Shown here piece by piece: positions 6,897 through 49,249 of a DNA stretch of 64,000 nucleotides; positions within the stretch are counted from its first letter, which is position 1, and each line of letters starts with the position of its first letter. Under the pieces are notes generated by a model. The model worked only from the letters and a program-made list of their open reading frames with translations. It did no database searches and had not been told where the DNA came from. Source of the DNA: Verrucomicrobiota bacterium (GTDB lineage Bacteria > Verrucomicrobiota > Kiritimatiellia > CAIQIC01 > JAGNIJ01); NCBI GenBank assembly GCA_022710725.1, contig JAKLGK010000010.1:67190-131189 (forward strand), read 5' to 3'. The translations under genes and the position numbers were made by a program.

Positions 6897-9131
<2,235 letters not shown>

Positions 9132-9160
9132 GGGGGTTCCTCCGGTTTTCGTTCGTGACG

Positions 9161-32003: not shown

Positions 32004-32079
<76 letters not shown>

Positions 32080-32488: not shown

Positions 32489-33565
32489 CTACACGATCTT
32501 TACCTTGGCGAGTTCGGCATCGATGAACGGCTGGCAGAGGTGTGCGTAGTGTTTTTGGAGCACCGTGGACGAGGGGGTATGCCCGACAACTATTTTAACC
32601 GCCTCGATATTTGACCCACTTTCAATGGCTCTACTGCAAAAATAGTGGCGGAAAGTATAAGGCGTGAATCCTTTCAATCCCGCGTTCTTAACGGCTCTCT
32701 TGAAGTGCTTCGGATAGCCATGAGCCCGGAATGCCGGTCGGCGCGGATGGAAGAACACCCAGTTGTGGGGCTTCCCGTCGGCAAAGACCTGCTCCCATTC
32801 CGTTTGCCACGCCAATAGGATGGGGAGGAGTTCCGGCAAGATGTTGACCGCCCTGAATCGTCCAGTCTTGAGATCGTGCTCTTGTTTGGGACGCACAAGG
32901 ATCTGCATCCTCTTGAAGTCGATATCGTCCCAGGAGAGGTGGAAGGATTCGCTGGGTCGCATCCCTGTGTACGCCATCAAGGCCATCCAGCAATAGACTT
33001 GGGAGCCTTCTGCTTTTCCGGCTTCAAGCAATGCCCTCATCTGCTCGGGGTTGGGAACCGGGCGATCACGAAGCACTTCCTTCAGGTTTTTGACTTCTTT
33101 CGCCGGATTCTGAAAAGCGTACTCTCTCTGCATCGCAAACTTGAACAGGTTGCGAAGGGTGATGAGTTCAAGGTTTACGGTTCTATTGGCCATGCCTTTT
33201 CTTTTCCGATCCTCCACGTATTTTTGAACATCCGATACTGCGATGGATGTCATGGGGGTCTTGTTGAAAAAGCCCAGGAGAGGGGGCCTCCGCGTCTTTT
33301 CACCGGCTATTGTGGACGCGGCACAGTCGCATGCACGGTATTCCAAGTACTCGCTGAAAATCTCGGCCAATGACTTGTTCCCTTTGCCACGAAATACCTT
33401 GCCTTCAATAATCACATCGTGCTTTCGTTTAGCTTCGGCAGCACTCGCGCGGCCCTTGGTTAGAAATCCTCCCTTACGATACCGTTGCCCCCTATGCCAA
33501 AAAGAGTAGTACCAAACGGGATGAGACCATTTATCCAAATGGTCTTTTCTTTGCCATACACTCAT
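32489..33565 (-). CDS. tyrosine recombinase / phage-type integrase
   Basis: MAYTGMRPSE (Arg), YTFRHYF (His-x-x-Arg), GHTPSSTVLQKHYAHL (His..Tyr). The start is 33565 (2 nt after the upstream stop) or 33601. Confidence 0.9.
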   Translation of the reverse strand: MSVWQRKDHLDKWSHPVWYYSFWHRGQRYRKGGFLTKGRASAAEAKRKHDVIIEGKVFRGKGNKSLAEIFSEYLEYRACDCAASTIAGEKTRRPPLLGFFNKTPMTSIAVSDVQKYVEDRKRKGMANRTVNLELITLRNLFKFAMQREYAFQNPAKEVKNLKEVLRDRPVPNPEQMRALLEAGKAEGSQVYCWMALMAYTGMRPSESFHLSWDDIDFKRMQILVRPKQEHDLKTGRFRAVNILPELLPILLAWQTEWEQVFADGKPHNWVFFHPRRPAFRAHGYPKHFKRAVKNAGLKGFTPYTFRHYFCSRAIESGSNIEAVKIVVGHTPSSTVLQKHYAHLCQPFIDAELAKVKIV

Positions 33566-33567
33566 GG

Positions 33568-34710
33568 TCAGATCTCTCCGCTCTTGGTCTTGTTGAACCA
33601 TGCATCCAAGTCCGACTTTTTGTAGGTATTCGGAGAGCCCGTCAGGTAAGGGATTTCCTTGTTATGCAGGAGCCACGATGGACTCCTCCGTAGATACATG
33701 GCTGCTTCCTTCGTCGTTAGGTACTCGTAATCCGCAAAATTGACCGTACTCTTGGCCAGGGATACGGCCGGGTGATGGTCCCGGCCAAGATCTTTCTCTT
33801 CCTGTCTTTTTGCCTTACCCGCATGTGCCGTCTCATCAAGGGATTCGCTCGAACTCGATGACGAATACACCACTTCCGAGGCTGTTTCCGGCACAGGCGC
33901 GGGCGGGGTGATGAGATATTCGGTGGATCGAGTCAGACCCGTGTTAAATGACTTTATCGAGTAGTTTACCGGCAGTTCTTCCAGGATGGCCCAGTCGTAG
34001 TGATCCTTGATTTCTGGAGCCATGTCATACGTCGCCACCCATCTGGTCCGTCCACGGAGAGCCTCGGCAAGGGCTTTGTGCTGCTCGGTCTGGAAATATT
34101 CCCGATACACGGATTTGCCTGCTTTGACATAGGGGGGATCGACGAACAGGACAGCATCGACAGGAGCTTCACGGATAAGCTGTATCCCGTCCTGGCAAAA
34201 GACCTTGGTGCGACCACGGAGCAGTTTGCGGGCCTCGATACATTCGGCGATGATTCTTCTGCAATTAAACCTGTCACCGATATGGCACTTGCCATCCTGT
34301 CCATATCCGCCAAGAGGGCCAGAATTTGCCATCCCACTGAACGTGCAATGGTTAAAGAAAATGGCACGGTAAGCACGCTCAACCTGGTCCTTGGGTGGGG
34401 TGGCGCGGAGTTGCTCAAGCAGTTCTACAGATGGAGCTTGGATGATAAGGTTAAGTAACCGCTGACACTCCCTGTCAGAGCCACTGGCCAGCACGTGCCA
34501 GAATGCCGATACGTCTTGGTCTAGGTCGTTTAGCCAGATTTCGATGTCGGGATAGTCCTGGGCCACGCTCAGCCCCACACTGAATCCACCGGCGAACGGC
34601 TCGACGTACAAGTGGGCATCACGCAACAACGGGTCGAGCTTTTCTCGGATTGAACCGATAAGTCTGTATTTTCCGCCAGGATACCTGAACAATGAGAGGT
34701 GCTTTTTCAT
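33568..34710 (-). CDS. D12-class (Dam-type) N6-adenine DNA methyltransferase fused to a C-terminal excisionase-like HTH
   Basis: FRYPGGKYRL (AdoMet motif) and FVDPPY (catalytic motif IV). The C-terminal 60 aa (YLTTKEAAMYLRRSPSWLLHNKEIPYL...YKKSDLDAWF) look like an HTH_17/Xis-type domain. Confidence 0.85.
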   Translation of the reverse strand: MKKHLSLFRYPGGKYRLIGSIREKLDPLLRDAHLYVEPFAGGFSVGLSVAQDYPDIEIWLNDLDQDVSAFWHVLASGSDRECQRLLNLIIQAPSVELLEQLRATPPKDQVERAYRAIFFNHCTFSGMANSGPLGGYGQDGKCHIGDRFNCRRIIAECIEARKLLRGRTKVFCQDGIQLIREAPVDAVLFVDPPYVKAGKSVYREYFQTEQHKALAEALRGRTRWVATYDMAPEIKDHYDWAILEELPVNYSIKSFNTGLTRSTEYLITPPAPVPETASEVVYSSSSSSESLDETAHAGKAKRQEEKDLGRDHHPAVSLAKSTVNFADYEYLTTKEAAMYLRRSPSWLLHNKEIPYLTGSPNTYKKSDLDAWFNKTKSGEI

Positions 34711-35318
34711 GAGGCACCGCCCTGTTCCTGCTGGTCAAGCCATGCGTAATACTCGTCTTGCGTTGTATCATCCGGCATGTCCCACATCGGCTCGCTGTAT
34801 GGATTGCTAATACGTGGCCGGAAAACAACTATGGCCACGGGGAATGGAGCCGGATATTCAGCGCCTTTAAATGTCAATCGTCCTATGGGGAACCGTATTT
34901 CAGATGCCTTGGCTGCGTACTGGTGCCACCAGTCCGTATCCACTCGTGCGGGTACAAGAGCAACCACCAGGGCAGCATTGTCCCGACACTCTATGTAGGC
35001 CTTTCTCAACCATTTTGGGAGTTCGGCGCTGTAGGGCGGATTCATAAAGACCCTCTCCCCTGCCCATGACTGCGCCAATCCATCTTCCGCTGGGGTGTAG
35101 TGCTTTTTACATTTGGCGGTCTTGTGGGTGCAGCAGGGGTCCAAGTCAAATTTGAACTCCAAATTCAAATACTCGAACCACACTGCCGGGGTAGCCCAAC
35201 TGTTGTTCCCTGTACTGGTCAATACCTGACGTGCATGCTCTGCTGTTTTATTTCTGCATACTTTATTATCTGCATCTGAGTTTGCCGGATTATCTCCAGC
35301 GGGTTTTGACTTCTTCAT
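34707..35318 (-). CDS. phage-type DNA N6-adenine methyltransferase (T1 Dam-like family)
   Basis: WATP..WF..LN.EF.FDLDPC...W.GERVFMNPPYS pattern with the NPPY catalytic motif. ATGA overlap with the downstream methyltransferase. Confidence 0.8.
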   Translation of the reverse strand: MKKSKPAGDNPANSDADNKVCRNKTAEHARQVLTSTGNNSWATPAVWFEYLNLEFKFDLDPCCTHKTAKCKKHYTPAEDGLAQSWAGERVFMNPPYSAELPKWLRKAYIECRDNAALVVALVPARVDTDWWHQYAAKASEIRFPIGRLTFKGAEYPAPFPVAIVVFRPRISNPYSEPMWDMPDDTTQDEYYAWLDQQEQGGAS

Positions 35319-36429: not shown

Positions 36430-39400
36430 CTACTTCTCCCCCCATGTCTGACACGCCTTGCAATCCACCACGATTGGCACTTGCGGGAAAATGGCCGCCA
36501 TCGCCTCGACCATGGCGTCGTGCACTATGGTATTTACCGCCTCAGCCTGCTCCGATGGTGTCTCGACGATCAGTTCGTCGTGGACGGTTGAGACGATTCC
36601 TGCCCCGTACGGTAGGCGGCTGGCGACAAGCAGAATTGCTTTTTTCATTCCGTCGGCACAGCTCCCCTGGACCGGCGTGTTCAGTAGCGTAGAGAATCGC
36701 GCCCATCTTTTGTCAAATCCGGCGGGCAGCATGCGCCTGCGGCCCAGTAGCGTTCGGACTTCCTTGGCACCACCAGCCTCAAGCCCTGCTTTGTCGTGCC
36801 AACGCCGCAGCCCTCGGTAGGCATTGAAAAATCGCTCTCTCATCTGAACGGCCTGTTGGTCAGTAAGCGTTACGCCGTAACTGGTTTTGGCGTACTTCAC
36901 CAATGTTGCCGCATACATTCCGTAGAGCAACCCGAAGTTCACGGCCTTGGCCAATTGTCGATCCTCTTTCGACACCGCATCGGGACTGATGCCCAGGACA
37001 AGGCTCGCCGTCTGCTTGTGCAAATCAGCCCCTTGGCGATACGCCTCGATCATTTTTGGTTCGTTGGCGATGGCCGCGGCGGCTCTCAACTCGATTTGCG
37101 AGTAGTCGGCAACAACCAAGGAGCAGCCTGGGCTTGCAACGAAGCAGTTTCGCAGCTCGCCTCGGGCGATGTTCTGCAGGTTAGGGTCCTTGGAGGAGAA
37201 TCTGCCTGTTTCAGTTCCGGTGGGTTCAAAACGCCCATGAATGCGTCCGTCCGGGCCTATCTTTTGAAGAAGCTTTTCTGTTTGTTCGGTGCGTTTCTGG
37301 GCGTTGCGATAAGCCAGGATATGAGGTACAAACCGGTCGTCGCCGCTGGCCTGTAAGGCTTCTTCGCCTGTTGATTCCAATGTAATACCCACACCGGCCA
37401 GCACGGTCTTGAGTTGCGCCGGTGAAGCCGGGTTGAGGGCAGGGGCATTGAATGTCTGTCGCAGCACCGTAGCTGCGGTGTCTCGCTCTTCTGCCGCCTT
37501 CTTGGAAAGGACCGCCAACCTGACCTTATCAATAGCAAACCCCCGAGCCTCGATATCCACCACCACCGGCAGGAGGTCCATCTCGGTTTCATACACCGTC
37601 AGCAACCCGGCCTTTTCTAGTTCGCCCTGGAGCTTTCCATGTAGGGCATGAAGATGATGCACATCGTCTGCGGCGTACCGCAGTTGTTCCTCGGACAACG
37701 CCATTGCCCCCCAATCAGATCGCCCTTGGTCCTTGGGCAGGTCTATTTGGAGGTGACGGGAAATTATAGCCCCGAGGTCGTTCGGCTCTTTGGTCCCGTT
37801 GGTCAACAAGCGACTGGCCGTCATGGTGTCCAGCACATTGCGGAGCACCAAGCCGCATTTAACCCGCAGCCACAGCGCATCAAACTTGATGTTGTGGCCC
37901 AAGACCGGCTTGGCGGGCAGCACCGCGCCGAGCGGTCCAAGATCGTAGCCAATAGCTTTCAGGTCCAGCACCCATGGGGAAACGCCTGGGATAGCCAAGG
38001 ATAGGAGCCGTATATCGCCCTGCCATGGGTCTAACCCGCCCTTGGCTCCATACGTTTCTATGTCCAAGGCAACGGGTTCCGATGCCGCCGTAATCTGGTC
38101 GGCTATGCCTTTTAGGGCGTCCGAGGATGTCACCAGGTCAAAGCAGGGGATTGTGGAAGATGCGGGCACCTTGGGCACGTTAGGCACCTGTTCTATGCTC
38201 TTATATATTTCCCTCTCTTTATTTTTCATCTCTATATTATTTGAAGAATTGGTTTTAATATAGGGAGTATAGGGAAGGTGCCCAAGGTGCCCAACGTGTC
38301 CACCTCCGGAAGGCGATTCTCCGACCTTGGCAGAGTTAAAAACGGTATCGAACATGGCGGCGCGGGCATTTACGGTAGAACCGCCCGCATCTTTCACGAA
38401 CCGATATGTATGCTGCTGAGATTTCTTGGCAGAGGCATTGCGTTCCAATCGGATACCGCCCAGAACACGCCCTACATGCTTATTCAGCAGTAGGGCGAAG
38501 GATGTGCGTCCGCCACGGCTTTCAAGGTCGAGCCACCCGAACAGCTCTGTGCCCTCGCCCTCAAGCAGTTCCATGATACGGCCCTTATTCACCCATTCCC
38601 CGTTGAACTGCTCGTGAGCCAGCGCAAATAGCGTCTTCATGTCGCCGGTTTGCTGGTCCCCGGCGATTTGGGTCCCGTCATTGGGAACAGGAAGACATGG
38701 ATCGCCCAATCCAGCAGAAGTCATGATGCCACCTACCACCTTTGCCCAGAGCGGGTAGCTGGTAAATGGGCTGGGTCCCGACGGGCGGCCCTGCATGTCC
38801 CAGTGGTCAACCAGCGCTGCAATAGCGGAGAGGACCCGACCACGGTTTGCGCGCAGCCACCCATGCAGGTCTGGCCTTTGGAAGGTTCGAGCGTTGGGGT
38901 CCTCCTCGCTGTAGAACAGCATAATCGGACGGCACCGAGCGTCGAGGTCCGGCGTGTAAGTCAATCCTGTATTAGCTGACAAACTGATCTCCATCTCATT
39001 CGGAAGGCTGATCGTGGTATTGCCTCCTAAAACACGGTCCGTCCATACCTCGGCTGTGCCGATACTTTCAAACGCCGAATTGTTTATATGCCCCTTGCAG
39101 TTTGCGAAGTGAATCCGACGCCGACCGGCGATCAGCGCAGAGGTAATTTTCTTGCGTGTCTCGGCCACGTCTGCGGTTAGCGGGGCATCCTCGTTTGTAC
39201 GGCCCTCATAGAGTATCGACGCAAGATTGGCCTCGCAATCTTTGCCTGCTCGTGCGCGGTTTGCGCCGTGGAACCACGTGGGTGTCCGAGCAGTCCATCG
39301 CCCGAACAGGCCGCGGCAGAAAGGCGTAATGAGCGCCGCTATGGCATGGGTAATGTCCTGCGCCGTCCGAAAACAGAACTCAAAATACAATTCACGCAGC

Positions 39401-40911
39401 AAGGCCAGGGCATCTGCCACTGGCATGCGCTCGATTTTCGGGGCGTCCTCGGCAAGATACGTCATGAAGCGCGGATCGTAGCCGGTGGACGGGTAGCAAA
39501 TTATCCCCTCCGGCGTGAGGATGGGAATCGGCACATCCAAGATACGTTCGACAACAGGCAGCTGCTCCCGAAATTGTTGTGCTGCCAATACTACCTCGGC
39601 TGTGTTTTTGTCCATGGAGCGGGCATTGAAAACGTCATTGCCCAGATCGTCCTTCGTCAAAAACCCCACCTCGGCGTAACTTTCCATCAAGGTAATCAAC
39701 CTAGCGGGCTTAACGACGGCAAATCCTAGGCACAGTTGTCCTTTTGCGAATTGGATCTGACTGATTTCCACAACCAGGCCGTTACGAAGGAAAAGACGCC
39801 TGACGCTAGTCGATGTGGCAATCGCTGCTCCTGCGTCTTTTGCAAAATCTGAGGCGGAGCGCCCTACACCGGGGAGGATGAGGCGCGGCCGCCCGTCCTG
39901 AGCAGTTTGACCCGGCTGAAAAACTCTCATCCGTTTACAGTGCAGGTCTACGCAGCCCGGTTCCGCTAATTCAAACCAATCCAGTACTTCGGCGAGATGC
40001 CGCTCAGCGCAATGTGCGTGCAGGCAAGAAAAACCCGGCATACTGTCAGGTGGCGCAAAGATTACAGTGCTGGAGTCGTCGGCAGCCTCTGCCTTGTCAC
40101 CATGCTCTGTTCGCCAAGGGCACAGGGCGGAGTATTTATTTTCATCCGGCGTGACGAGGTCGCCAAGCATCCCTGCGTCATGAAACAGTTCCGCTATATC
40201 TAGCGTGCGTAGGTCGCCCTGGTATTTCGCCCACCACGCTGCTTTATTCTGTCTGCGAACGGTGTGGCTGTCGGTTGTTTCTCCCTCATCGGTAGGCAGC
40301 CTGAATCCGAACCATTGCTGGAGTTGCGACCATGTTACGGTTGGAACTTCTCCCTTGGTCCTCCACTCGTAGGCCGATCCGTTTGGGTGAATGGAGGGCG
40401 GCAACACGATGTTAAGTCCGTCATAATACAGCTCTATCGTAAGCTTTTCGTTGATGTGGGAAATTAGAGCCTTCTCATACCTCTTCCCATTAGATTTCTT
40501 GAACTGGGGCAGATCATAGCAAACGAACACGAGCCGTTCGCCATTGCCGGTGGAATAGCGGGGGACATTCTTAAGATGCGCTTGCGCGGGCTGGTCATCT
40601 AACCACGCCCGCACGCTAGCACCCTGGTCCTTTTTCGAATCAAGGTCTATGAAGACCCATGGACGGCGGACCACGACTCCGAGATTGGAGGTTGTGCCAT
40701 TACTAAAGTACGTTGAAAGAAATTCATCCGTCACTTTTTCAACAGACCAACATTTCCAATCCCGAAGTCGTGGCTTTTTGCCCCGTTCGCTTGGCCCGCC
40801 CTCGCTAGGGCCATGTAGCGGGTGAACCGCCCACCCAAGGTCACGATACAGACGTGCTGCGGCCAGTTTATGGCTTGGTATTTCATCTGGTATTGTAAAA
40901 ACCTCGCTCAT
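36430..40911 (-). CDS. fusion replicase: N-terminal bifunctional primase-polymerase (PrimPol) + Zn motif + ~500-aa central region + C-terminal family A DNA polymerase with 3'-5' exonuclease
   Basis: PrimPol: GKKPRLRDW, WVFIDLDS, IVLPPSIHPNGSAYEW. Zn motif: CPWRTEHGD...FSCLHAHC. Exonuclease: LDIETYG, GHNIKFD, YAADDVHHL. Polymerase motifs A/B/C: VADYSQIELR, RQLAKAVNFGLLYG, STVHDELIVE. Confidence 0.9.
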   Translation of the reverse strand: MSEVFTIPDEIPSHKLAAARLYRDLGWAVHPLHGPSEGGPSERGKKPRLRDWKCWSVEKVTDEFLSTYFSNGTTSNLGVVVRRPWVFIDLDSKKDQGASVRAWLDDQPAQAHLKNVPRYSTGNGERLVFVCYDLPQFKKSNGKRYEKALISHINEKLTIELYYDGLNIVLPPSIHPNGSAYEWRTKGEVPTVTWSQLQQWFGFRLPTDEGETTDSHTVRRQNKAAWWAKYQGDLRTLDIAELFHDAGMLGDLVTPDENKYSALCPWRTEHGDKAEAADDSSTVIFAPPDSMPGFSCLHAHCAERHLAEVLDWFELAEPGCVDLHCKRMRVFQPGQTAQDGRPRLILPGVGRSASDFAKDAGAAIATSTSVRRLFLRNGLVVEISQIQFAKGQLCLGFAVVKPARLITLMESYAEVGFLTKDDLGNDVFNARSMDKNTAEVVLAAQQFREQLPVVERILDVPIPILTPEGIICYPSTGYDPRFMTYLAEDAPKIERMPVADALALLRELYFEFCFRTAQDITHAIAALITPFCRGLFGRWTARTPTWFHGANRARAGKDCEANLASILYEGRTNEDAPLTADVAETRKKITSALIAGRRRIHFANCKGHINNSAFESIGTAEVWTDRVLGGNTTISLPNEMEISLSANTGLTYTPDLDARCRPIMLFYSEEDPNARTFQRPDLHGWLRANRGRVLSAIAALVDHWDMQGRPSGPSPFTSYPLWAKVVGGIMTSAGLGDPCLPVPNDGTQIAGDQQTGDMKTLFALAHEQFNGEWVNKGRIMELLEGEGTELFGWLDLESRGGRTSFALLLNKHVGRVLGGIRLERNASAKKSQQHTYRFVKDAGGSTVNARAAMFDTVFNSAKVGESPSGGGHVGHLGHLPYTPYIKTNSSNNIEMKNKEREIYKSIEQVPNVPKVPASSTIPCFDLVTSSDALKGIADQITAASEPVALDIETYGAKGGLDPWQGDIRLLSLAIPGVSPWVLDLKAIGYDLGPLGAVLPAKPVLGHNIKFDALWLRVKCGLVLRNVLDTMTASRLLTNGTKEPNDLGAIISRHLQIDLPKDQGRSDWGAMALSEEQLRYAADDVHHLHALHGKLQGELEKAGLLTVYETEMDLLPVVVDIEARGFAIDKVRLAVLSKKAAEERDTAATVLRQTFNAPALNPASPAQLKTVLAGVGITLESTGEEALQASGDDRFVPHILAYRNAQKRTEQTEKLLQKIGPDGRIHGRFEPTGTETGRFSSKDPNLQNIARGELRNCFVASPGCSLVVADYSQIELRAAAAIANEPKMIEAYRQGADLHKQTASLVLGISPDAVSKEDRQLAKAVNFGLLYGMYAATLVKYAKTSYGVTLTDQQAVQMRERFFNAYRGLRRWHDKAGLEAGGAKEVRTLLGRRRMLPAGFDKRWARFSTLLNTPVQGSCADGMKKAILLVASRLPYGAGIVSTVHDELIVETPSEQAEAVNTIVHDAMVEAMAAIFPQVPIVVDCKACQTWGEK

Positions 40912-40943: not shown

Positions 40944-41459
40944 TCACCAACCCTCGCCGGGCATGTTTACCCCTGCCGCTTCCTTGACGCCGTTTTTAGC
41001 GGCCGGATCTGCGACAGCCTTTTTCAGCGCCTCCAACTTATCATTCCAGTCCTCTGGGACCGGGCCGATGTTATGGATGGTCGCAAACGGTTGGCCTGGA
41101 TGTAGAGTCGACGGCATATGGGCGATGGTTATCATCGCTCCACACCCCTTAAGCTCGCCGAAGTCCCAGCCAGCTCGTGGGGGCTCCCCACACCATGCAT
41201 GAAGGGCTTGATATAGGGATGATTTCTCGTGTGACGAGATCCGCATCTTGCGAGATGTTATCCGAAATATCTCACCTGACTTCGGATCCTTAAAGACGAA
41301 CCGGAATTGGGTCTGATCAATCACTTCCATTTCTTCGGAGTTGTACTTCTTTCGATGAACACCGAACTCGTCTTTTATATCCTCACAAATTGCGAGGAAT
41401 GTGCCTTTCGGGATAGTCTTCCAGTTTGCGTTACCACTAACTTCTGGCAATATTGCCAT
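40944..41459 (-). CDS. hypothetical protein (possibly phage SSB-like/DUF669-like; weak)
   Basis: 171-aa ORF located 33 nt upstream of the replicase on the same strand, with an acidic/Ala-rich tail. The family guess is low confidence. Confidence 0.5.
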   Translation of the reverse strand: MAILPEVSGNANWKTIPKGTFLAICEDIKDEFGVHRKKYNSEEMEVIDQTQFRFVFKDPKSGEIFRITSRKMRISSHEKSSLYQALHAWCGEPPRAGWDFGELKGCGAMITIAHMPSTLHPGQPFATIHNIGPVPEDWNDKLEALKKAVADPAAKNGVKEAAGVNMPGEGW

Positions 41460-42424: not shown

Positions 42425-42522
42425 AGTAATAGTAGCGCAGGATAAAACGCCCTGTAGTGCCGATCGTAACCAGGCGATCAAAACCGTGATCAGGCTGGAG
42501 GCGGGGTTGCGCTACTATTACT
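42425..42522. promoter_or_regulatory. 15-bp perfect inverted repeat flanking three clustered GATC sites in the divergent RHH/HTH intergenic region
   Basis: AGTAATAGTAGCGCA (42425-42439) and TGCGCTACTATTACT (42508-42522) are reverse complements. GATC occurs at 42462, 42476 and 42488. Confidence 0.55.
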
Positions 42523-44126: not shown

Positions 44127-45641
44127 ATGCTAACAAAGAGGGAACAATCCAACCTGGAGACCCATGTTCTTGGGATTTTCCAGACCGTCGTTCTGCCAGA
44201 GATCACACCCGGAGGAGCCGTCCTCACGCGAGAAGCGGACGGAAGGGTCATCGAAGATTATGTGGCGACCCATCACCTGGTCGAATTATGTGTTGAGGTT
44301 GACGCCACTCTTTTCAAGCAGATTATTCATACCGCTTGCCAATGGTTTGCAAAAACACATGGCAACCCTCACAACCCATTTATGGTCACAACTCTTGCGC
44401 GAGCGGGCGCCTTTAATGATACGACGAGGGACGACATTGCAAAGGCCATCCTCGCGAAGCAGAAGCCAAGCGGCTTCTTTGAGCTATACTCCGGCTTTCT
44501 TGATGGGGGAAATATCTTCTCTACCCTTTGGGCGATTCGTATTCTTCAATTGCTCGGCCGACACGAAGCGACCTCGCCACCTATCCGCAAGGCGCTGAAT
44601 GCAATTGAAGGTCAGTGGGAGGATGTTCATCGTACATCGTTCAAGGGTTTCTTCTTTGAATTGCGACATGTGCCGTCTCATGGCAAGCGGCCATCTGCCG
44701 CAGCCACGAAACTTCTGACGGAGATCATCAAGGCACAGGCTGACAACGGCTTATGGGATGGTGAGGCGTTATATACGGCGTACGTATTGGGCAACCTGAC
44801 GAAAACTCCGTGGGAGCCAACATCTACCCAGCAATTTGCGGAAGACCATGCACTGAAGGCACTGTTCAGTCTTCGAGATTCCCCGCAGTCGCTACCGTCA
44901 GTGTTTCTTAAGGCGCGTAAGAAGTACCACGAATCAACATACCTACAACTGTGCTTTCGCTCACTCATTAGTTCTATCCGCTACCTTCGCATGCGATGCG
45001 GCAAAGATATGTCTCATGCAATTGCGTCAGTAGTAATGGGGTCGTTTCCTACGATCTACCACACAGCTCAACGTCTGGGGGCCGAACTTAAGCGGATGGA
45101 CGCTCAATATGGGGCTATACAAGCGCAGTTCTCTCATCTCGACCCATCCGCAAGCGTCCTGTTGAAAGAAAGTCCATATGAAAGAAACGTGTTTGTGATG
45201 ATGCCATTTCGAAAGGATCGCGACGAGCGCTATGAGCGAATCGAGAGTATTATCAGGCAAGAGCTCAAGAAGCACGGGTTCACTGCGTGGTTGGCCTCGG
45301 ACAAGACGGTAGCCCCTCAACTGTGGGATAACGTCGCTTCATTCCTTCTGGCGTGTAAGTACGGTATAGCCGTGTTTACTCGTATAGAGAAAGAAAGCAC
45401 TATACAGGAGGAGTTCAATCCGAACGTTTCGCTTGAACTCGGCTTCTGTCTGTCACGCGGGCGTAGCGTCCTTATTCTGAAGGACTCCTTCTTGCCACGA
45501 TTGCAGACAGACCTCATTGGCTATCTATACAAGCAATTCGACCTCAACCAAGTTACAAGGCAACTACCGCGGATTGTTCGTGCTTGGATACGAGATATTC
45601 TCAAAGCAGAGGAATGCGCAAAGAAGCAACCAACAAAATAA
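44127..45641 (+). CDS. fusion protein: N-terminal alpha/alpha-toroid (prenyltransferase/terpene-cyclase-like repeats) + C-terminal TIR/nucleoside 2-deoxyribosyltransferase-like domain
   Basis: Toroid-type repeats: KPSGFFELYSG..NIFSTLWAIRILQLLG and ADNGLWDGEALYTAYVLGNL. The C-terminal flavodoxin-like pattern is NVFVMMPFRKD...FTAWLASD...ACKYGIAVFT...NPNVSLELGFCLSRGRSVLIL. Confidence 0.6.
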   Translation: MLTKREQSNLETHVLGIFQTVVLPEITPGGAVLTREADGRVIEDYVATHHLVELCVEVDATLFKQIIHTACQWFAKTHGNPHNPFMVTTLARAGAFNDTTRDDIAKAILAKQKPSGFFELYSGFLDGGNIFSTLWAIRILQLLGRHEATSPPIRKALNAIEGQWEDVHRTSFKGFFFELRHVPSHGKRPSAAATKLLTEIIKAQADNGLWDGEALYTAYVLGNLTKTPWEPTSTQQFAEDHALKALFSLRDSPQSLPSVFLKARKKYHESTYLQLCFRSLISSIRYLRMRCGKDMSHAIASVVMGSFPTIYHTAQRLGAELKRMDAQYGAIQAQFSHLDPSASVLLKESPYERNVFVMMPFRKDRDERYERIESIIRQELKKHGFTAWLASDKTVAPQLWDNVASFLLACKYGIAVFTRIEKESTIQEEFNPNVSLELGFCLSRGRSVLILKDSFLPRLQTDLIGYLYKQFDLNQVTRQLPRIVRAWIRDILKAEECAKKQPTK

Positions 45642-45807: not shown

Positions 45808-47157
45808 ATGACAAAGAACCTGCACAGGAAAGCCGTCAGGGGCCAAGAAGGTGTCAACCTCGTAGAGAGGGTTGTTCTGGATATGAAGTCCAGATGGACG
45901 CCAAGCGGCCCTAACGAGGTTGGCATCGATGGTTTCATCGAACTGTTTGATTCGACGACTGGCAAGCCAACGGGCAAGAACATAGCGGTTCAATCAAAGG
46001 CCCTGGCCGCTCTTTGCCGGAAGGGCACCGACACCATCGAGTACTGGTGTGACCGCCGAGACATCGAGTACTGGTTGCGGCAGAATCTTCCAGTGATTCT
46101 CGTTGTCTCAAACCCAGATACTCCGGAGGCGTACTGGGCATGTATTCACGACCGGTTCCCGGATTACTCGCGACATGTGTCGCCGAAGATTCAATTTGAC
46201 GTTAAAGCCGACGCATTCTCCGCTTCAGCATGGGCTGCATTGCGCGGGCTGCGCACCCCGAAGATTGGCGGGAAGACCTTCATTGAAGCTTGCCAGCCCG
46301 GAACTGAACGAGCCGTCTCAAATCTCTTTCCTCTGCGTCGTTTTAGCGGCACGATCTATCATGGAATGACGGATATGCGTTATCCCATCGATGTGTGGCG
46401 ATCACTTCGCGAGGCTGCTGATTTCAACGATGGTGCCTGGGTGCTCCATGACAAGGGAGTATTCTCTTTTGCTGACCTCAAATCGCCGGAGTGGAACGCC
46501 ATCTGTGACAAGGGAACTGTGGAGCCGTTCGATACTGCTGAGTGGGCGGACTCTAGTAATGCTGACAGCCAACGGCTTTTCGTGCAATTGCTTAATCGAG
46601 CACTGAAATCGCAACTCAGTCCGAGGGTCCGTTTCTGGCCGAAACAGGATTGCTTCGCTTTTGTTGGTGGCCCTTGGACGGGTCGAGTTGTATTCCCTTA
46701 CCAGTCAGCAGAGAAAAAGAGCCATGTTACGGTTGTCGAAGAGTTCGCGCATGACACGGCCGATGGTCGGACCTTCGTCCATTACAGGCACTTAGCGTTC
46801 CGGGGGCGTTTCCGAAAACTCCAAGGCAAGTGGTTCTTGGAGGTCACTCCTACGTACCGGTTCACGCGCGACGGGAACTGGCTCTATCGATTTCACGAAG
46901 ATCAGTTGAAAGGGATCAAACGGATCGAGGGCAATAGAGCTGTTCTAAGCCAGGTCCTGGTGTGGGCTGAGTTCCTGTGTGAAACGGACGATATGTGGAC
47001 ATCCGTTCCCCGTCATCTTGAGTTCGTGCGTCCCGTTGAGATTGAGTTGCCAGCGATACTGCGGGATTCGGCATGGGGAAAACCACCGCAGCCCCCAAGC
47101 GAGGATTCTGATGATAGCATTATGGAACTTCCCTTTGGTGATGAGGTCATGTCATGA
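45808..47157 (+). CDS. DUF4365 (DREN nuclease)-APAZ protein, partner of the short pAgo
   Basis: The N-terminus has PD-(D/E)xK-like motifs (EVGIDGFIEL, NIAVQSK). The C-terminal APAZ hallmark is YRHLAFRGRFRKLQGKWFLEVTPTYRFTRDGNW. ATGA overlap with the next gene. Confidence 0.85.
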   Translation: MTKNLHRKAVRGQEGVNLVERVVLDMKSRWTPSGPNEVGIDGFIELFDSTTGKPTGKNIAVQSKALAALCRKGTDTIEYWCDRRDIEYWLRQNLPVILVVSNPDTPEAYWACIHDRFPDYSRHVSPKIQFDVKADAFSASAWAALRGLRTPKIGGKTFIEACQPGTERAVSNLFPLRRFSGTIYHGMTDMRYPIDVWRSLREAADFNDGAWVLHDKGVFSFADLKSPEWNAICDKGTVEPFDTAEWADSSNADSQRLFVQLLNRALKSQLSPRVRFWPKQDCFAFVGGPWTGRVVFPYQSAEKKSHVTVVEEFAHDTADGRTFVHYRHLAFRGRFRKLQGKWFLEVTPTYRFTRDGNWLYRFHEDQLKGIKRIEGNRAVLSQVLVWAEFLCETDDMWTSVPRHLEFVRPVEIELPAILRDSAWGKPPQPPSEDSDDSIMELPFGDEVMS

Positions 47158-48614
47158 GAGCGATCTTGCTGGAAGAACCGGAACTCGAATTTGGTGCAGG
47201 CACGCACGTGGATATTAGGTTTGGCCTAATGGAAAGCGGCCCGTTGGACCGTGATACAGATCTGGCTCCGCGTCCCTTGAAGGTTGGAGTAGTGGGAACT
47301 AAGAAGACGTGTGACGCAGCCTGCGAGTGGCTACAGAAACTGCGGGGTGAGATTCCGGCGCAGCAGACTCACCTTTCGAACTTACATCCACCTTTCCCGG
47401 GGATAGACGCATCTTCATGCTTCGGGACCGAACTGCAGATCCACGACAGGTGGATCTCTCCCGTCAGCATGCGCGAAGTAGACTCCATGATTTCCTCGTG
47501 CACTCCCGCTGAACTTGCAGAGCGATCGGTTGACCTCTTCTTGAGCCACGCGGATGATCTCGTGGATGCAGGCGGTCCGAGTGTCCTTATCGTCGCGCCT
47601 CCTCCGGAGCTGTTTGCCGCTCTTGAGTCAGATCCGAGGCCGCCAATTGACCCAGATGATCAAGAACTGGATGAAAGCACAGAGGCCACTCCCTCTGCTG
47701 CAACGCCGTGCTTCCACGATATCCTCAAAGCTAAAGGCATGCGTTTAGCCGTACCGATCCAGATGGTCCGCCCAAGGACCTATGGCATGACGGCGGGGAA
47801 CAAGAAGGGGCATAAAGGCCGGAAGACACTCCAAGACGAGGCGACGCGTGCATGGAACTTCGCCGTCGCTCTTTACTACAAGGCCGGCGGCACGCTCTGG
47901 CGCATCCCAAGGCAAACAAGCGACCTGACCGCGTGTTTTGTGGGGGTCAGCTTTTTCAAGATTCCGAACAGCAACGATGCAGCGTCAAGTGTGGCGCATG
48001 TGTTCAACGAGCGTGGCGAGGGAATCATTATTAAGGGTGGTGACGCGGCCTGGGACAAGTCTGAGCACCAGTATCACTTGTCCCGCAATGATTCCTTCGA
48101 CATTCTGTCCTCTGCACTGACGCTCTACCGTAAAGAGCATCACACCGTTCCTGCTCGCGTCATACTGCACAAGACATCGCCTTTCAGTGATGCCGAGCAG
48201 GATGGCTTCAAAGGCGCGTCGGAAAGGGAGAGGATCGCCTACACGGATTTGATACATGTCCGGCGGTCATATTCTCGGTTCTTTCGGACTGATATTTATC
48301 CGCCATTCCGTGGAACACTTGTGGAGCTAGAAGATGCCAGGGGGCTCCTCTATCTCCGGGGGAGCGTCTCCTTCTTCCAGGCATATCCGGGTCTCTATGT
48401 CCCCCGCCCTTTTGAGTTCTGTCTATGCCAGTCGGAGAATGGTGTTGAAGAAGTGGGAGAAGAGATGATGGCACTGTCTAAGCTGAACTGGAATAACACC
48501 CAGTTCGATGGTGGCGAACCAATCACTATCAGGGCAGCGCGACGTGTGGGCGATATACTGAAATGGATACCTCAAGATGTAAGCCCACGGAACGGATTCA
48601 GATTCTTCATGTGA
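47154..48614 (+). CDS. short prokaryotic Argonaute (MID-PIWI only, catalytically inactive PIWI)
   Basis: AWNFAVALYYKAGGTLWRI, ACFVGVSFF, RVILHKTSPF, MALSKLNWNNTQFDGGEPITIRAARRVG. At 486 aa there is no room for N/PAZ domains. The Asp positions are replaced (GVSF, HKTS). Confidence 0.9.
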   Translation: MRAILLEEPELEFGAGTHVDIRFGLMESGPLDRDTDLAPRPLKVGVVGTKKTCDAACEWLQKLRGEIPAQQTHLSNLHPPFPGIDASSCFGTELQIHDRWISPVSMREVDSMISSCTPAELAERSVDLFLSHADDLVDAGGPSVLIVAPPPELFAALESDPRPPIDPDDQELDESTEATPSAATPCFHDILKAKGMRLAVPIQMVRPRTYGMTAGNKKGHKGRKTLQDEATRAWNFAVALYYKAGGTLWRIPRQTSDLTACFVGVSFFKIPNSNDAASSVAHVFNERGEGIIIKGGDAAWDKSEHQYHLSRNDSFDILSSALTLYRKEHHTVPARVILHKTSPFSDAEQDGFKGASERERIAYTDLIHVRRSYSRFFRTDIYPPFRGTLVELEDARGLLYLRGSVSFFQAYPGLYVPRPFEFCLCQSENGVEEVGEEMMALSKLNWNNTQFDGGEPITIRAARRVGDILKWIPQDVSPRNGFRFFM

Positions 48615-48714
48615 AAGCATGTTACATCGAGGAAAGACAGCCACAAGGGCTTTCATGCCAACCTTGCTCGTGGGGTCGCTCGCAATAATGCCAAGCAACT
48701 GGCGTTCGACTAAC

Positions 48715-49221
48715 ATGATGAATATTAAATACATGGAATATGCGCTAGATCAAGCGCGAACAGCACTCGCCAATAATAACGTACCGATAGGCGCGGTAGT
48801 TGTACATGAGGGGTGTGTTATAGGGTGCGGCTATAATAGGGTTATGGGTGGGGATCGGTTTGGCCACGCGGAAATGATGGCCCTGCGCATGGCACATGAT
48901 GCAATAGCCGCATTGCGCATTTCAAGCAGAAGACGAGTTGAATTGTTTACGACGCTAGAACCTTGTATGATGTGCCTTGGAGCGGTCATGCAGGTAAATA
49001 TCGGGAAAGTAATTTACGCATTAAAGGCCCCAACTGATGGAGCTACGCATATGGCTGGGCCGCAGGTGGTCCATAGTGCACAGATCATGAAGTTCTATAC
49101 GCCGCCGATTGTTGAGAAGGGTGGCGGTGAGTCAGAGAGTAGACAGCTACTAAAGAAATTCTATACTGAACATTCTGCTCATTATCTGGGGAAGTGGGCT
49201 TTGTTATTGGCAGAGCAATGA
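48715..49221 (+). CDS. TadA/CDA-fold nucleoside (tRNA-adenosine-like) deaminase
   Basis: VPIGAVVV...GYN...HAEMMAL...TLEPCMMCLGAV zinc-binding deaminase motifs. The start is uncertain (48619, 48715 or 48733). Confidence 0.85.
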   Translation: MMNIKYMEYALDQARTALANNNVPIGAVVVHEGCVIGCGYNRVMGGDRFGHAEMMALRMAHDAIAALRISSRRRVELFTTLEPCMMCLGAVMQVNIGKVIYALKAPTDGATHMAGPQVVHSAQIMKFYTPPIVEKGGGESESRQLLKKFYTEHSAHYLGKWALLLAEQ

Positions 49222-49249
49222 TATATTCTCAAAGTGATGCGGAGACTAT

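Follow-up and report, generated by a model that had tools for sequence, protein, structure and literature searches.

A single gene in the window (the whole 64-kb stretch of DNA analysed here) is probably the replicase gene of an integrative mobile (defence) element. Four functions would be united in its one polypeptide, namely an AEP PrimPol with a zinc module, an SF3 initiator-helicase, a 3'-5' exonuclease and a family A polymerase, and an iteron module in the DNA that codes for a linker would serve as the origin. If this is true, a self-loading initiator-helicase-primase-polymerase replicates an integrative defence island and has its own origin translated as a linker. Czernecki et al. 2023 have already given the AEP-PolA fusion a single sentence, and the helicase assignment and the in-frame origin are described in no paper of the literature searched; the predicted SF3 helicase and the in-frame origin-like module are what appears to be new here.

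Gene and domain architecture

According to the ORF list and its translation, positions 36430..40911 hold one unbroken reading frame of 1493 aa from ATG to stop, and the original prediction of a single polypeptide was exact in its coordinates. The gene lies on the minus strand, which corrects that prediction; the plus-strand translation of the same interval is riddled with stops. The public gene call P0001 (1434 aa) begins 59 residues too late, since conserved PrimPol residues lie upstream of its start. The order of domains is AEP PrimPol, a separate Cys/His zinc module, a module of ~515 aa, a variable linker, 3'-5' exonuclease and family A polymerase, and the same three Pfam domains occur in ~46 full-length relatives (1425-1700 aa, 39-57% identity) from independent JGI, ENA, NCBI and Logan assemblies. 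Invariance is given below for A1, an alignment of 28 sequences comprising the window protein and 27 full-length relatives. Comparison with L092, an 85-91% identical full-length copy from another metagenome, yielded dN/dS values of 0.08-0.23 in all catalytic modules, which are under purifying selection, as against 0.60 in the linker.

The N-terminal catalytic domain (aa 1-205; 40297..40911, minus strand) matches Pfam Prim-Pol PF09250 over aa 21-186 (E 1.9e-14; 54.8 bits, cut-off 22.8), and the fold predicted by AF2 (pLDDT 89.8) is that of a pRN1/NrS-1-like AEP PrimPol, the top Foldseek matches being pRN1 ORF904 (9aam, 1rni, 3m1m), NrS-1 and CAPP. D89xD91 of motif I, the acidic residue E160 and S173/H175 are invariant in A1, and dN/dS against L092 is 0.16. 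Motif II reads T121-G-N-G-E-R126 and the R126 codon is CGG; L092 shares this Arg, and all 27/27 aligned relatives have His. The motif II His has been described as required for nucleotide binding (PMC4538821), and its replacement in the window copy and L092, a further correction to the original prediction, counts against the replicase reading.

The zinc module (aa ~245-305; 39997..40179, minus strand) is separate and strand-rich, with AF2 placing beta-strands at 249-254, 259-262, 282-285 and 293-296, and carries the motif C264-P-W-x3-H270 ... C296-x-H298-x-H300-C301. Among 49 sequences C264, W266, H270, C296 and H298 are invariant and P265, H300 and C301 nearly so, while in A1 C264, P265, H270, C296 and H298 are invariant and C301 nearly so. 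The equivalent region of relative P0144 has a weak match, below cut-off, to the DnaG-type CHC2 zinc ribbon PF01807.

At the other end of the protein, the proofreading exonuclease (aa 926-1110; 37582..38136, minus strand) matches PF01612 DNA_pol_A_exo1 over aa 927-1099 (1.7e-19). In A1, D950 and E952 of Exo I (D950-I-E952-T), D1011 of Exo II (N1007/F1010/D1011) and Y1079/D1083 of Exo III are invariant, and N1007 nearly so. The polymerase domain (aa 1111-1493 plus the stop codon; 36430..37581, minus strand) matches PF00476 DNA_pol_A over aa 1132-1492 (7e-82) and has motifs A (D1269-Y-S-Q-x-E-L-R), B (R1318/K1322/F1326/Y1330) and C (H1444-D1445-E1446) intact and invariant in A1; a 5'-3' exonuclease domain is absent from the PolA part of the ORF. 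Its PDB matches (8jrb 2e-73, PREX 3e-62, Klenow/Taq about 1e-51) and best NCBIfam match (PRK14975.1-3) place it, as judged from sequence, in the Aquificae/PREX-like clade of family A. The original prediction had named an archaeo-eukaryotic PrimPol in the first ~200 aa, a Cys/His zinc motif after it and a complete exonuclease-polymerase at the C-terminus, and all three hold; the PolA phylogeny that it had proposed, an NJ tree, gives the fused PolAs as a monophyletic group.

The predicted SF3 helicase module and its nucleotide site

Pfam gives no match to any part of aa 190-925, and the module at aa 336-850 (38362..39906, minus strand) has by sequence zero matches in Pfam, in the PDB or to DUF5906/DUF3987 proteins. 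Its AF2 model (pLDDT 89.9, pTM 0.79) comprises an N-terminal collar, an AAA+ core and a C-terminal helical/winged-helix part, and Foldseek matches it with probability 1.00 to each of 7pds PriRep1 (9e-8), 8wh0 MPXV E5, 5dgk Cch, 6lrb NrS-1 CTR, 7ola SaPI5 primase-helicase, 9ivf/8iqi ASFV PrimPol and 8hwh/8apl vaccinia D5. All top PDB matches are thus SaPI PriRep, MPXV E5, vaccinia D5, SCCmec Cch, the NrS-1 C-terminal region or ASFV PrimPol, and on this model the formerly uncharacterised core is a D5/P4-alpha/SaPI-Rep-like SF3 helicase. Structure prediction of the region, as the original prediction had suggested, therefore agrees with its remark that the region sits where D5/P4-type primases carry such a helicase. 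The end of the module (aa ~776-840; 38392..38586, minus strand) may be a winged helix, as suggested by Foldseek alignments to SaPI Rep/PriRep that cover nearly the whole model and by predicted secondary structure, in which helices over model residues 447-456 and 470-482 precede strands over 491-495 and 506-511.

The nucleotide site is deviant. G549-A-N-R-A-R-A-G-K557-D558 (39238..39267, minus strand) aligns with Walker A and has Asp in place of the canonical Ser/Thr, and the acidic residue is absent from the Walker B position, I600-H-F-A-N604 (39100..39114, minus strand). The helicase may for these two reasons not hydrolyse NTP in the usual manner. Walker A reads GKD in 45/46 family members, the sole exception being P0047 with GKT. 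The family is very large, and among its 150 best cluster representatives GKD occurs in 149 and GKE in one. The Walker B position is H-[FL]-[AGS]-N throughout the family members apart from P0047 (IFDN); in the 150 best representatives it is [A/S/G]-N in all but a few, one of which has Glu. No variation is seen in A1 at N551, G556 or K557, and very little at D558. The site is strictly conserved across these alignments and so has not decayed. Of the suggestion of a degenerate or novel domain, the non-canonical P-loop (GANRARAGKD) stands and the decay does not.

An important consideration is whether such a site supports a helicase at all. It might be that the protein is a replicase whose SF3 module is an NTPase-dead, origin-binding, ring-forming scaffold that initiates replication or tethers six polymerases like a clamp, with unwinding left to a strand-displacing PolA, a host helicase or an accessory PIF1-like helicase. 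The family-wide GKD and acid-less Walker B favour this, as does the ability of SaPI Reps to bind and melt origins without ATP (PMC9371898), and genes for a PIF1-like SF1 helicase and a PD-(D/E)XK nuclease lie directly upstream in L084 and L088. However, K557, D558, N604, N647 and R659/R661 show no or almost no variation in A1, no other part of the protein has so low a dN/dS (0.08 against L092), and the canonical GKT and the canonical Walker B Asp occur together, in P0047 and in no other member. From the alignments the two deviations look coupled, as if the metal-binding carboxylate had been relocated and not as if the site had decayed, and we infer that the GKD site still hydrolyses NTP. The PIF1-like gene, moreover, is absent from the window element. 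A scaffold without NTPase activity is thus considered unlikely, if worth keeping in mind. The PIF1-like helicase of some relatives could do the unwinding there, an observation that counts against a replicase with a helicase of its own.

Repeats in the linker DNA

In the linker-coding DNA two arrays of three 9-bp repeats, the second inverted, flank an AT-rich spacer of 84 nt, all on the minus strand. Array 1 (38275..38301; TRF period 9, about 3 copies) reads GGACACGTT GGGCACCTT GGGCACCTT on the coding strand and encodes GHVGHLGHL (aa 871-879), the spacer (38191..38274) encodes PYTPYIKTNSSNNIEMKNKEREIYKSIE, and array 2 (38164..38190; also found by TRF), inverted relative to array 1, reads CAGGTGCCT AACGTGCCC AAGGTGCCC and encodes QVPNVPKVP (aa 908-916). 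Each array is identical to that of L092 at 26/27 nt, and both the spacer and the flanks have diverged. The spacer has a GC of 0.27 against a gene average of 0.56 and holds the GC minimum of the entire gene, which lies in the linker at 7/9 loci. The exact inverted arm in the window linker is 15 nt, compared to a maximum of 10 in shuffles, and clustering of the 9-mer was found nowhere else in the 64-kb window. Among the loci examined, 12 PolA-fused ones, the window included, have exact inverted arms of 15-31 nt (shuffles at most 10-12 nt), and the 9-mers differ between PolA-fused loci (GGGCACCTT, GGAGACCTT, ACATTGTCA, TGCGCACTT, GGCGCACGT, GGAAACCTC). Inverted arrays are weak or absent in the fused L082, L084, L089, L090 and L112/115/116, the last three having a short linker, and this counts against the replicase reading.

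There are also helicase-only relatives (37-40% identity), whose stop codon falls 0-6 residues past the helicase module. In L099, L100, L103, L111, L123 and L107/108 the repeat module lies in non-coding DNA after that stop codon, starting about 10-50 nt past it (93 nt in L111), and L099 carries the GGGCACCTT unit, as the window does; the background of such period-9 runs is 1.8 per 100 kb. This sequence comparison was judged decisive for reading the module as an origin, and the linker-coding DNA may accordingly be the replication origin of the element, translated as a linker. That the repeats act instead at the RNA or protein level, as an mRNA hairpin that pauses ribosomes or gives a shorter primase-helicase, or as functional peptide repeats, or else are functionless low complexity produced by slippage, is distinctly improbable. 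The linker region as a single strand does fold into a long hairpin (z = -3.96), the in-frame period-9 repeats do give tripeptide repeats, and low complexity is tolerated in linkers, in keeping with the dN/dS there. However, the untranslated position of the module in the helicase-only relatives speaks against all of this, the arrays are kept at all codon positions whilst the intervening peptide drifts, and arms ~80-100 nt apart with AT-rich DNA between them are unlike a terminator or a frameshift stimulator.

Island context, proposed mechanism and known systems

The tRNA-integrated element of the original prediction is borne out by a tyrosine integrase gene (32489..33601, minus strand; PHROG 1, 9e-61; Pfam Phage_integrase, 8e-25) beside tRNA-Phe(GAA) (32004..32079, plus strand; ARAGORN), the island boundary, where GC drops from ~0.69 to ~0.52. 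Neither the far end of the island nor a second copy of the tRNA 3' end was found within the 64-kb window, no excised circular form was seen, and IMG/VR yielded no relatives. Immediately upstream of the gene lies a 171-aa ORF (40944..41459, minus strand) with an NCBIfam rep_init_NGO0469 match below cut-off (2e-11); a 46.6% identical ORF stands upstream of the replicase gene, with one ORF between, in a Kiritimatiellia MAG element (L090/L091), and this neighbour is possibly an accessory replication-initiation protein.

Defence genes are abundant in the island (a short pAgo system, PDC-S15, a deaminase), and the protein might be cargo, a repair, damage-tolerance or defence factor rather than a replicase. 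There is a precedent in the PrimPol of the Thermus mobile element ICETh2, which is reported not to be needed for replication of the element and to have a link with defence against DNA from the environment (PMC7693054). A survey of relatives for neighbouring integrases, also proposed originally, nevertheless showed that they adjoin integrase or serine recombinase genes together with small HTH_17 genes, a position that stays constant whilst the cargo is wholly different between elements, and one element of about 7.5 kb has almost no other genes. The gene is furthermore coupled to the origin-like iteron module, and primase, helicase and proofreading polymerase together form the replicative triad of viral surveys (PMC4889955). 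A cargo role is accordingly held to be very unlikely. As for an artefact (frameshift, misassembly or chimeric contig) fusing separate primase-helicase and polA genes, the contig is metagenomic and the helicase-only relatives end exactly where the linker begins, but a frameshift, which had been named as a possible refutation, is excluded by the ~46 full-length relatives from independent assemblies, and the low dN/dS of the catalytic modules, the full-length L092, the presence of the contig in 3 samples and the monophyly of the fused PolAs leave this explanation practically no chance.

Under the replicase reading, the integrase would first excise the element. The C-terminal part of the helicase module, or perhaps the 171-aa neighbour, would recognise the 9-bp iterons of the linker-coding DNA, which form two opposed sets of three, and hexamers would load at both sides, opening the 84-nt spacer. 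The helicase would then translocate, the PrimPol/zinc module would make primers and the tethered exo-PolA would elongate them with proofreading. It follows from such a mechanism that origin, initiator, helicase, primase and polymerase would all reside in one gene.

Parts of this arrangement are known from other systems. In phage lambda the origin is the middle of gene O, and extra iterons lengthen the O protein (PMC7466680). In SaPIs the origin lies directly downstream of the rep ORF and has 6-12 iterons, in two opposed sets with an AT-rich centre, to which a self-loading Rep binds through its C-terminal winged helix (PMC9371898); this is the same architecture as that of the iteron module in the window linker and in the helicase-only relatives, and the SF3 module has SaPI Rep/PriRep among its best structural matches. 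The analogy with apicoplast PREX drawn in the original prediction, with a different domain set, was apt, in that the PolA of PREX is nearer to the window PolA than Klenow or Taq, whereas its primase and helicase are of non-homologous types.

The replicase gene and its terminal domains

The long open reading frame (ORF) on the minus strand of the window at 36430-40911 is best explained as the self-contained replication module of an integrative island. It starts at an ATG and spans 1493 codons as a single ORF, and the plus-strand reading of the same interval was ruled out, that frame being full of stops. Pfam places three domains in the product, here called the replicase: Prim-Pol (PF09250) at residues 21-186, with 54.8 bits against a cut-off of 22.8, a PolA-type 3'-5' exonuclease at residues 927-1099, far above threshold, and a family A polymerase at residues 1132-1492, also far above threshold (7e-82). 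Residues 190-925 gave no Pfam match. The public gene call of this ORF (P0001) begins 59 residues too late, leaving out conserved residues of PrimPol further upstream.

A fusion of this kind might have been produced by an assembly artefact joining separate genes, and the 65.7-kb JGI metagenome contig carrying the window was seen in 3 samples. A search of 5.8 billion clustered proteins yielded ~46 full-length relatives of 1425-1700 aa, with the same three Pfam domains and 38-48% identity, drawn from JGI, ENA, NCBI and Logan assemblies. A cluster-representative search added closer relatives, including a protein from a Kiritimatiellia MAG with 55% identity in the middle region. Relatives with a named source come from Kiritimatiellia, Planctomycetota and Actinomycetes MAGs, the closest of them from a Kiritimatiellia MAG, and one locus from another metagenome (L092) encodes a relative that is 85-91% identical. 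Measured against L092, dN/dS was 0.16 for PrimPol, 0.12 for the zinc module, 0.08 for the middle module, 0.23 for the exonuclease and 0.09 for the polymerase. Because of the ~46 full-length relatives and L092 the fusion is real and conserved, and the artefact is the less well supported explanation. A scan of genome contigs keyed on generic PolA motifs found only ordinary polA genes and no family members, its top match being a standalone 592-aa Nostoc PolA with 38% identity. Some relatives (P0018, P0022, P0023 and P0026-P0031) carry an extra N-terminal extension of 100-150 aa ahead of PrimPol, occupying columns 1-190 of the alignment of the replicase with 27 full-length relatives (A1); it consists of a helix-turn-helix and then a long Gly/Ser/Asn-rich low-complexity stretch, and one member bearing it matches the sigma-70 region 4 family PF08281.

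The PrimPol motif I residues D89xD91 and the acidic residue E160, which is assigned as motif III and third acidic metal ligand by position only, are invariant both in the 28 sequences of A1 and in a set of 49 sequences, and S173 and H175 are invariant in A1. An AF2 model of the N-terminal 335 residues (pLDDT 89.8) had as its best Foldseek matches pRN1 ORF904 (9aam/1rni/3m1m, E-values from 6e-8 to 3e-7), the NrS-1 primase-polymerase (2e-5) and CAPP. Motif II reads T121-G-N-G-E-R126, with Arg in place of the His of the sxH motif. The His is present in 27 of 27 aligned relatives, and the Arg is shared by the window and L092; the R126 codon, CGG at 40534-40536, is two changes from a His codon. The sxH His has been described as needed to bind nucleotide (PMC4538821), and looser conservation of the motif II His has been reported for another AEP supergroup (PMC5862659). 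The primase is probably active despite R126, since the PrimPol domain is under purifying selection (the dN/dS of 0.16). R126 may nevertheless weaken priming in this lineage, and this is the second uncertainty after the question of motor or ring that is taken up with the middle module.

Downstream of PrimPol, the zinc ligands C264, H270, C296 and H298 are invariant in A1 and C301 is nearly so. They belong to a separate strand-rich unit lying C-terminal to the PrimPol catalytic core, whose ligand spacing we take to be like that of the UL52/PrimPol zinc finger. The UL52 and PrimPol zinc fingers have the same separate, strand-rich, C-terminal layout and are needed for priming (PMC4538821). One idea, by analogy, is that the zinc module is kin to the UL52/PrimPol finger, or equally that it is a DnaG-type CHC2 ribbon.

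At the C-terminal end the exonuclease residues D950/E952 (Exo I), D1011 (Exo II) and Y1079/D1083 (Exo III) are invariant in A1, with N1007 nearly so, as are polymerase motif A (D1269-YSQ-E-LR), motif B (R1318/K1322/F1326/Y1330) and motif C (H1444-D1445-E1446). A 5'-3' exonuclease domain was sought in the Pfam scan and neither PF02739 nor PF01367 matched. The original prediction had described a single 1493-aa polypeptide with an N-terminal PrimPol, a zinc motif and a complete exo+pol PolA, and all of this stands: the fusion through the ORF itself and the ~46 same-domain relatives from independent assemblies, the PrimPol through a Pfam score above the curated threshold, the invariant D89, D91 and E160 and the AEP fold found by AF2 and Foldseek, the zinc motif through its conserved Cys/His ligands in A1, and the PolA through its invariant motifs and the Pfam value of 7e-82.

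Against PDB the PolA module matched 8jrb at 2e-73, PREX at 3e-62 (214 bits) and Klenow/Taq at ~1e-51 (178 bits). Its best NCBIfam matches were PRK14975.1-3 ('bifunctional 3'-5' exonuclease/DNA polymerase') with 470 bits, compared with 320 bits for Pol I. A phylogeny of the module, proposed along with the original prediction and built here as an NJ tree, showed that the fused PolAs are monophyletic and lie beside standalone enzymes of Nostoc, Pyrinomonadaceae and Sulfurihydrogenibium, apart from canonical Pol I. On the PDB, NCBIfam and tree results taken together, the PolA module is assigned to the Aquificae/PREX-like clade ('Hot Spring 1', cd08639).

The middle module

The region between the zinc module and the exonuclease was refractory to sequence comparison. 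A Pfam search of residues 190-860 at E <= 10 matched nothing, D5_N, DUF5906, Pox_D5 and DUF3987 included, a profile search of PDB sequences gave nothing but an insignificant Era GTPase match, and hhalign comparisons with P0049 and P0053 (a DUF5906/D5_N and a DUF3987 protein) were not significant. Only structure prediction combined with Foldseek resolved it. An AF2 model of the middle ~515 residues, built from 49 sequences, had a pLDDT of 89.9 and a pTM of 0.79, and all 50 of the 50 PDB matches listed by Foldseek were D5-like SF3 primase-helicases (probability 1.00, E from 9e-8 to 9e-6, TM 0.32-0.49). Among them are SaPI PriRep1 and PriRep5, MPXV E5, vaccinia D5, SCCmec Cch, the C-terminal region of NrS-1 and ASFV PrimPol, and the modelled collar, AAA+ core and C-terminal domain fit the D5-like SF3 group. 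Because all the listed structural matches are D5-like SF3 primase-helicases, the middle module is, on its predicted fold, a divergent SF3 helicase. It spans residues 336-850, encoded at 38362-39906 of the window. The original prediction had suspected as much from its position, by reference to P4/D5-type proteins, and had pointed to HHpred or structure prediction as the way to find out; it had also noted a non-canonical P-loop-like string here, which proved to be a family trait.

Walker A in this family has the form NRxRxGK-D (A-G-K557-D558 in the replicase), with Asp for Ser/Thr, and so departs from the canonical GxxxxGK[ST]. The Walker B position is occupied by H-F/L-A/G/S-N (H-F-A-N604 in the window), without an acid. 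The sole family member with GKT, P0047, is likewise the sole one with a Walker B Asp (IFDN). Conservation is complete or almost so for the Walker A Lys, a motif C-like Asn (S-A-N647) and R659/R661, and N647 and R659/R661 occur in the order expected for a sensor 1 Asn and an arginine finger, judged by sequence order alone.

The family to which the module belongs is very large. With phmmer, 13,821 cluster representatives were found at E <= 1e-3, of which 8,012 pass E <= 1e-10; the majority are ~800 aa long and lack PolA, and in ten scanned representatives the N-terminus was Prim-Pol, Toprim, DUF3854 or without a Pfam match. No Pfam model matched the SF3 module in the window protein or in these ten relatives. 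Within the best 150 of the representatives (P0089-P0238) there are 149 with GKD and 1 with GKE, and a Walker B acid is all but absent among them. On these alignments the GKD site is a conserved variant and not the product of decay. The main uncertainty concerns what such a site does, in that the GKD module may be a motor or may form an origin-binding ring only. The departure of the P-loop from the textbook consensus is conserved and can be tested directly by mutagenesis, and the SF3-module family merits a family-level description of its own.

Linker repeats, island context and proposed replication

Between the SF3 module and the exonuclease lies a linker in which Tandem Repeats Finder located two 9-nt arrays, both within the ORF and reverse complements of each other. 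On the coding strand array 1 is GGACACGTT GGGCACCTT GGGCACCTT, translated as residues 871-879 (GHVGHLGHL), and array 2 is CAGGTGCCT AACGTGCCC AAGGTGCCC, translated as residues 908-916 (QVPNVPKVP). The 84-nt spacer between them has a GC of 0.27 and holds the GC minimum of the gene. This 9-mer is clustered nowhere else in the window, and runs of that kind with a period of 9 have a background of 1.8 per 100 kb over all the DNA fetched. The strong signal is inside the ORF, the intergenic regions around the replicase gene having just weak repeats and one perfect 15-nt inverted repeat. The latter (42425-42439 and 42508-42522, with a 68-nt loop) lies in AT-rich intergenic DNA upstream of the replication-side operon and could be an operator or terminator.

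The same layout, at the same place and with other 9-mers, was found in 12 of the PolA-fused loci examined, the window included. Exact inverted arms in those loci are 15-31 nt long, compared with at most 10-12 nt in shuffles, and the AT-rich minimum falls between the arms. Set against L092, the arrays are almost intact, with just 1 of 27 positions changed in each, whereas the spacer and flanks have drifted apart, and dN/dS of the linker is 0.60. Since the arrays are kept amid this divergence and the linker has so high a ratio, the constraint on the arrays is on the DNA and not on the peptide.

Helicase-only relatives, which share the SF3 module and lack PolA, have ORFs that stop 0-6 residues past the module. 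In 6 of them the same layout was found in non-coding DNA ~10-50 nt past the stop codon (93 nt in the locus L111), as three direct 9-mers, ~75-95 nt with a TATA-like AT-rich stretch and three inverted 9-mers, and some of these relatives use the GGGCACCTT unit, identical to that of the window. Because it lies outside the ORF in the helicase-only relatives, the repeat module was probably enclosed by gene fusion, and the simplest history would be that polA was fused across an origin following a primase-helicase gene, the origin becoming a linker. A separate lineage (L112, L115 and L116) has the SF3 module joined to exo-PolA (41% identity) by a short linker of ~53 aa without inverted repeats, so not every fusion encloses a repeat module. 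At L111 a new ORF starts directly after the iteron module, from ~3830 onward, and its N-terminus (MKPEVELPGQFRSQDEFAAELG...) is like the start of the same SF3 module, which suggests tandem paralogous helicase genes with a repeat module between them.

In SaPI origins two oppositely oriented sets of iterons flank an AT-rich centre directly 3' of the rep ORF, and the self-loading Rep helicase binds them through its C-terminal winged helix (PMC9371898). The window linker has a layout of the SaPI type, with 3 + 3 nine-bp units around an AT-rich centre after the helicase-coding region, and by this analogy its DNA is origin-like and a putative origin. A role of the linker repeats at the level of RNA is less well supported than the putative origin; in the helicase-only relatives the layout stands beyond the stop codon.

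The setting of the gene is that of a mobile island, and the tRNA-integrated element of the original prediction has its integrase, tRNA-Phe and GC break all in place. GC changes from ~0.69 to ~0.52 exactly at the tRNA-Phe gene (32004-32079), which is adjoined by a tyrosine integrase gene (32489-33601). From the integrase to the replicase, all on the minus strand, follow two orphan adenine methyltransferases (33568-35318), the first D12-class with a C-terminal HTH_17 and the second Dam-like, and a 202-aa ORF; beyond the replicase is a 171-aa ORF that is weakly similar to NGO0469-type replication initiators and is conserved in the Kiritimatiellia element. The D12-class gene overlaps the integrase gene and its HTH_17 is AlpA/excisionase-like; relatives encode HTH_17 on its own, in a small gene that in several loci directly precedes the replicase. 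A second copy of the tRNA-Phe 3' end was looked for within the window and not found. Since low GC persists as far as the window end, the island may have its far border outside the window.

The elements of the relatives have a constant core and variable cargo. A tyrosine integrase lies within a few kb of the replicase in L082, L086 and L089, and the Kiritimatiellia element L091 has a large serine recombinase in its place. In L084 (7745-10004) and L088 (7863-10004) genes for a PD-(D/E)XK nuclease and a PIF1-like SF1 helicase directly precede the replicase and overlap it, and this sub-lineage has two conserved small ORFs (~190 and ~225 aa) after it. Beside tRNA-Arg in L086 (7140-14600) lies a minimal element of ~7.5 kb, in which the replicase is accompanied by a small HTH_17 gene, a single 266-aa ORF and an integrase. 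Host sigma-factor and ExbD/TonB genes border it, and a search for direct repeats at its flanks found none. A pattern scan of IMG/VR returned no relatives, and PHROGs, Pfam and PADLOC found no terminase, capsid or packaging genes between 32 and 56 kb of the window.

Beyond the 171-aa ORF the cargo of the island consists of plus-strand defence genes. At 45808-48614 there is a short pAgo system, a DUF4365 nuclease-APAZ and a class I short pAgo with a 4-nt gene overlap, identified by PADLOC as Aga_REase-PNTD1-PNTD2 (4e-115) and short pAgo (2.5e-147). More defence-like cargo, at 48619-49912 and 44127-45641 on the same strand, comprises a cytidine/dCMP deaminase-family protein, PDC-S15, a candidate defence protein with an FRG domain (1.6e-73), and a 504-aa protein with a weak TIR-like match (CAP12/Pycsar TIR, 4e-4, below the cut-off). 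A very long plus-strand ORF running off the window end (~59400-64000) has Asp-rich DxDGDG-type repeats and long repeated segments when read by eye, suggesting LamG-like and thrombospondin-type-3-like repeats; lying in the low-GC part, it is possibly island cargo. On the host side, the 'UvrA' at 6897-9452 (minus strand) is a ~745-aa paralogue of the DrrC/UvrA2 type, a widely transferred gene with named relatives in archaea and in several bacterial phyla, and so no guide to the placement of the host.

A repair or defence role of the replicase itself, next to which defence genes lie as cargo, is less well supported than its role as the replication module of the island. In the mechanism proposed for that module, the initiator-helicase would recognise the iterons in its own gene and open the AT-rich spacer, the PrimPol and zinc module would prime, and the tethered proofreading PolA would extend the primers. 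It is possible, if rather doubtful, that the gene is a complete one-ORF replicon, in which a cis origin (translated as a linker), origin recognition, duplex opening, helicase, primase and proofreading polymerase were brought together by polA fusion across the origin after a SaPI/P4-like primase-helicase gene. Were this so, the element would need little from its host beyond dNTPs, SSB and ligase, a low dependence that would explain its spread across phyla, and GKD without a Walker B acid would mark a P-loop that works in rewired form, its metal-binding carboxylate having moved from Walker B to Walker A. If the linker is an origin, the family would also surpass in compactness every self-contained DNA replicon so far described, since 4.5 kb would contain the origin together with all core enzymes. 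It would then be a natural candidate where an orthogonal replication system independent of the host is wanted, a tractable model for the hand-over of DNA from a helicase to a tethered polymerase, and a clear case of a gene fusion swallowing a cis-regulatory element. With this family, a one-gene replicon becomes an idea open to direct test.

Comparison with known systems

A fusion of AEP and PolA has been recorded in ~7% of the bacterial sequences of PolA cluster #8, named 'Hot Spring 1 (Aquificae-like)', from Verrucomicrobia, Planctomycetota and Nitrospirae (Czernecki et al. 2023, NAR, PMC10201439). At the reported level, an N-terminal AEP with an Aquificae/PREX-like PolA, these fusions are the same thing as the replicase. 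The report amounts to one sentence and one table cell, in which no helicase, zinc module, deviant P-loop, element context or linker repeats appear, and the literature searched contained no description of this protein's helicase module, deviant P-loop, element context or origin-like linker.

PREX (Plasmodium Pfprex) is like the replicase in having primase, helicase, 3'-5' exonuclease and PolA in one chain, with a PolA of the same clade. Its helicase is of the Twinkle/SF4 type, and we know of no in-gene origin in PREX. The primase of PREX is TOPRIM, with an associated helicase (PMC10201439). The replicase is unlike it in combining an AEP primase with a D5-like SF3 helicase, and has no TOPRIM/Twinkle-type N-terminus. 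The analogy with PREX, drawn at the outset with the proviso of a different domain set, is apt: the PolA is PREX-like, but AEP and SF3 take the place of the types found in PREX. PREX is nuclear-encoded and organelle-targeted, whereas the replicase gene is carried by a bacterial integrative element.

The SaPIs encode their own integrase, and their replicon, reportedly described by Ubeda in 2007 and 2012, is said to consist of Pri/Rep or a fused PriRep5 with the ori immediately 3' of rep. They are chromosomal islands that excise and replicate (Qiao et al. 2022, PMC9371898). The likeness to the replicase extends to the helicase fold (7ola and 7pds are among the best matches) and to an N-terminal primase fusion, as in SaPI5, and that to its island to two opposed iteron sets with an AT-rich centre directly after the helicase-coding region. 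No similarity was detected, however, at the sequence level, the iterons are 9 bp against 5-6 bp, the putative origin is translated and GKD stands against a canonical Walker A. The replicase has a proofreading PolA, while no polymerase is reported among the genes of SaPIs, and in the island no packaging or phage-interference genes were seen, its cargo being defence genes.

P4 gp-alpha, poxvirus D5/MPXV E5 and ASFV C962R resemble the replicase in having a primase, a collar, an SF3 AAA+ core and a C-terminal DNA-binding domain, with matching folds, and in the P4-alpha/D5 family the origin is bound by a C-terminal winged helix (PMC4889955). P4-alpha differs in its DnaG-type primase, none of P4-alpha, D5, E5 and C962R has a polymerase, and the Pfam families D5_N, DUF5906 and Pox_D5 find no match in the replicase. 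The gp28 protein of the deep-sea phage NrS-1 has PrimPol and a C-terminal SF3-like helicase region in one chain, as does the replicase, and its structures were matched in both halves (6a9w and related entries for PrimPol, 6lrb/6k9e for the helicase), but it belongs to a phage and has no family A polymerase or exonuclease. In lambda the iterons and an AT-rich tract are inside the O coding sequence and are translated, extra iterons adding residues (PMC7466680). Lambda O is thus like the replicase in having iterons and an AT-rich tract inside the coding sequence of the initiator, and is a precedent for a translated origin; it is neither a helicase nor a primase or polymerase, and its iterons do not flank the AT-rich tract as two opposed sets.

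Replisomes are normally multi-protein machines, and to our knowledge few cases have been described in which primase, helicase and polymerase are in one chain (PREX, phage 1706 gp55 and phiAsp2 Pas55). The two phage proteins, Lactococcus phage 1706 gp55 (SF3+AEP+PolB) and Actinoplanes phage phiAsp2 Pas55 (SF3+DnaG+PolA), are single-chain triads (Kazlauskas et al. 2016, PMC4889955) that share with the replicase three replicative activities in one chain and an SF3 helicase; the replicase differs in its set of AEP, SF3 and exo-PolA and in a carrier that is an integrative element, not a phage. What was already known is therefore the AEP-PolA fusion, noted in passing (PMC10201439), and single-chain triads in two other combinations (PMC4889955), along with PREX. 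With its helicase assigned on the predicted fold, the combination of AEP, SF3 and exo-PolA would be the fourth in a single chain, and is carried on integrative islands of PVC-group and other bacteria.
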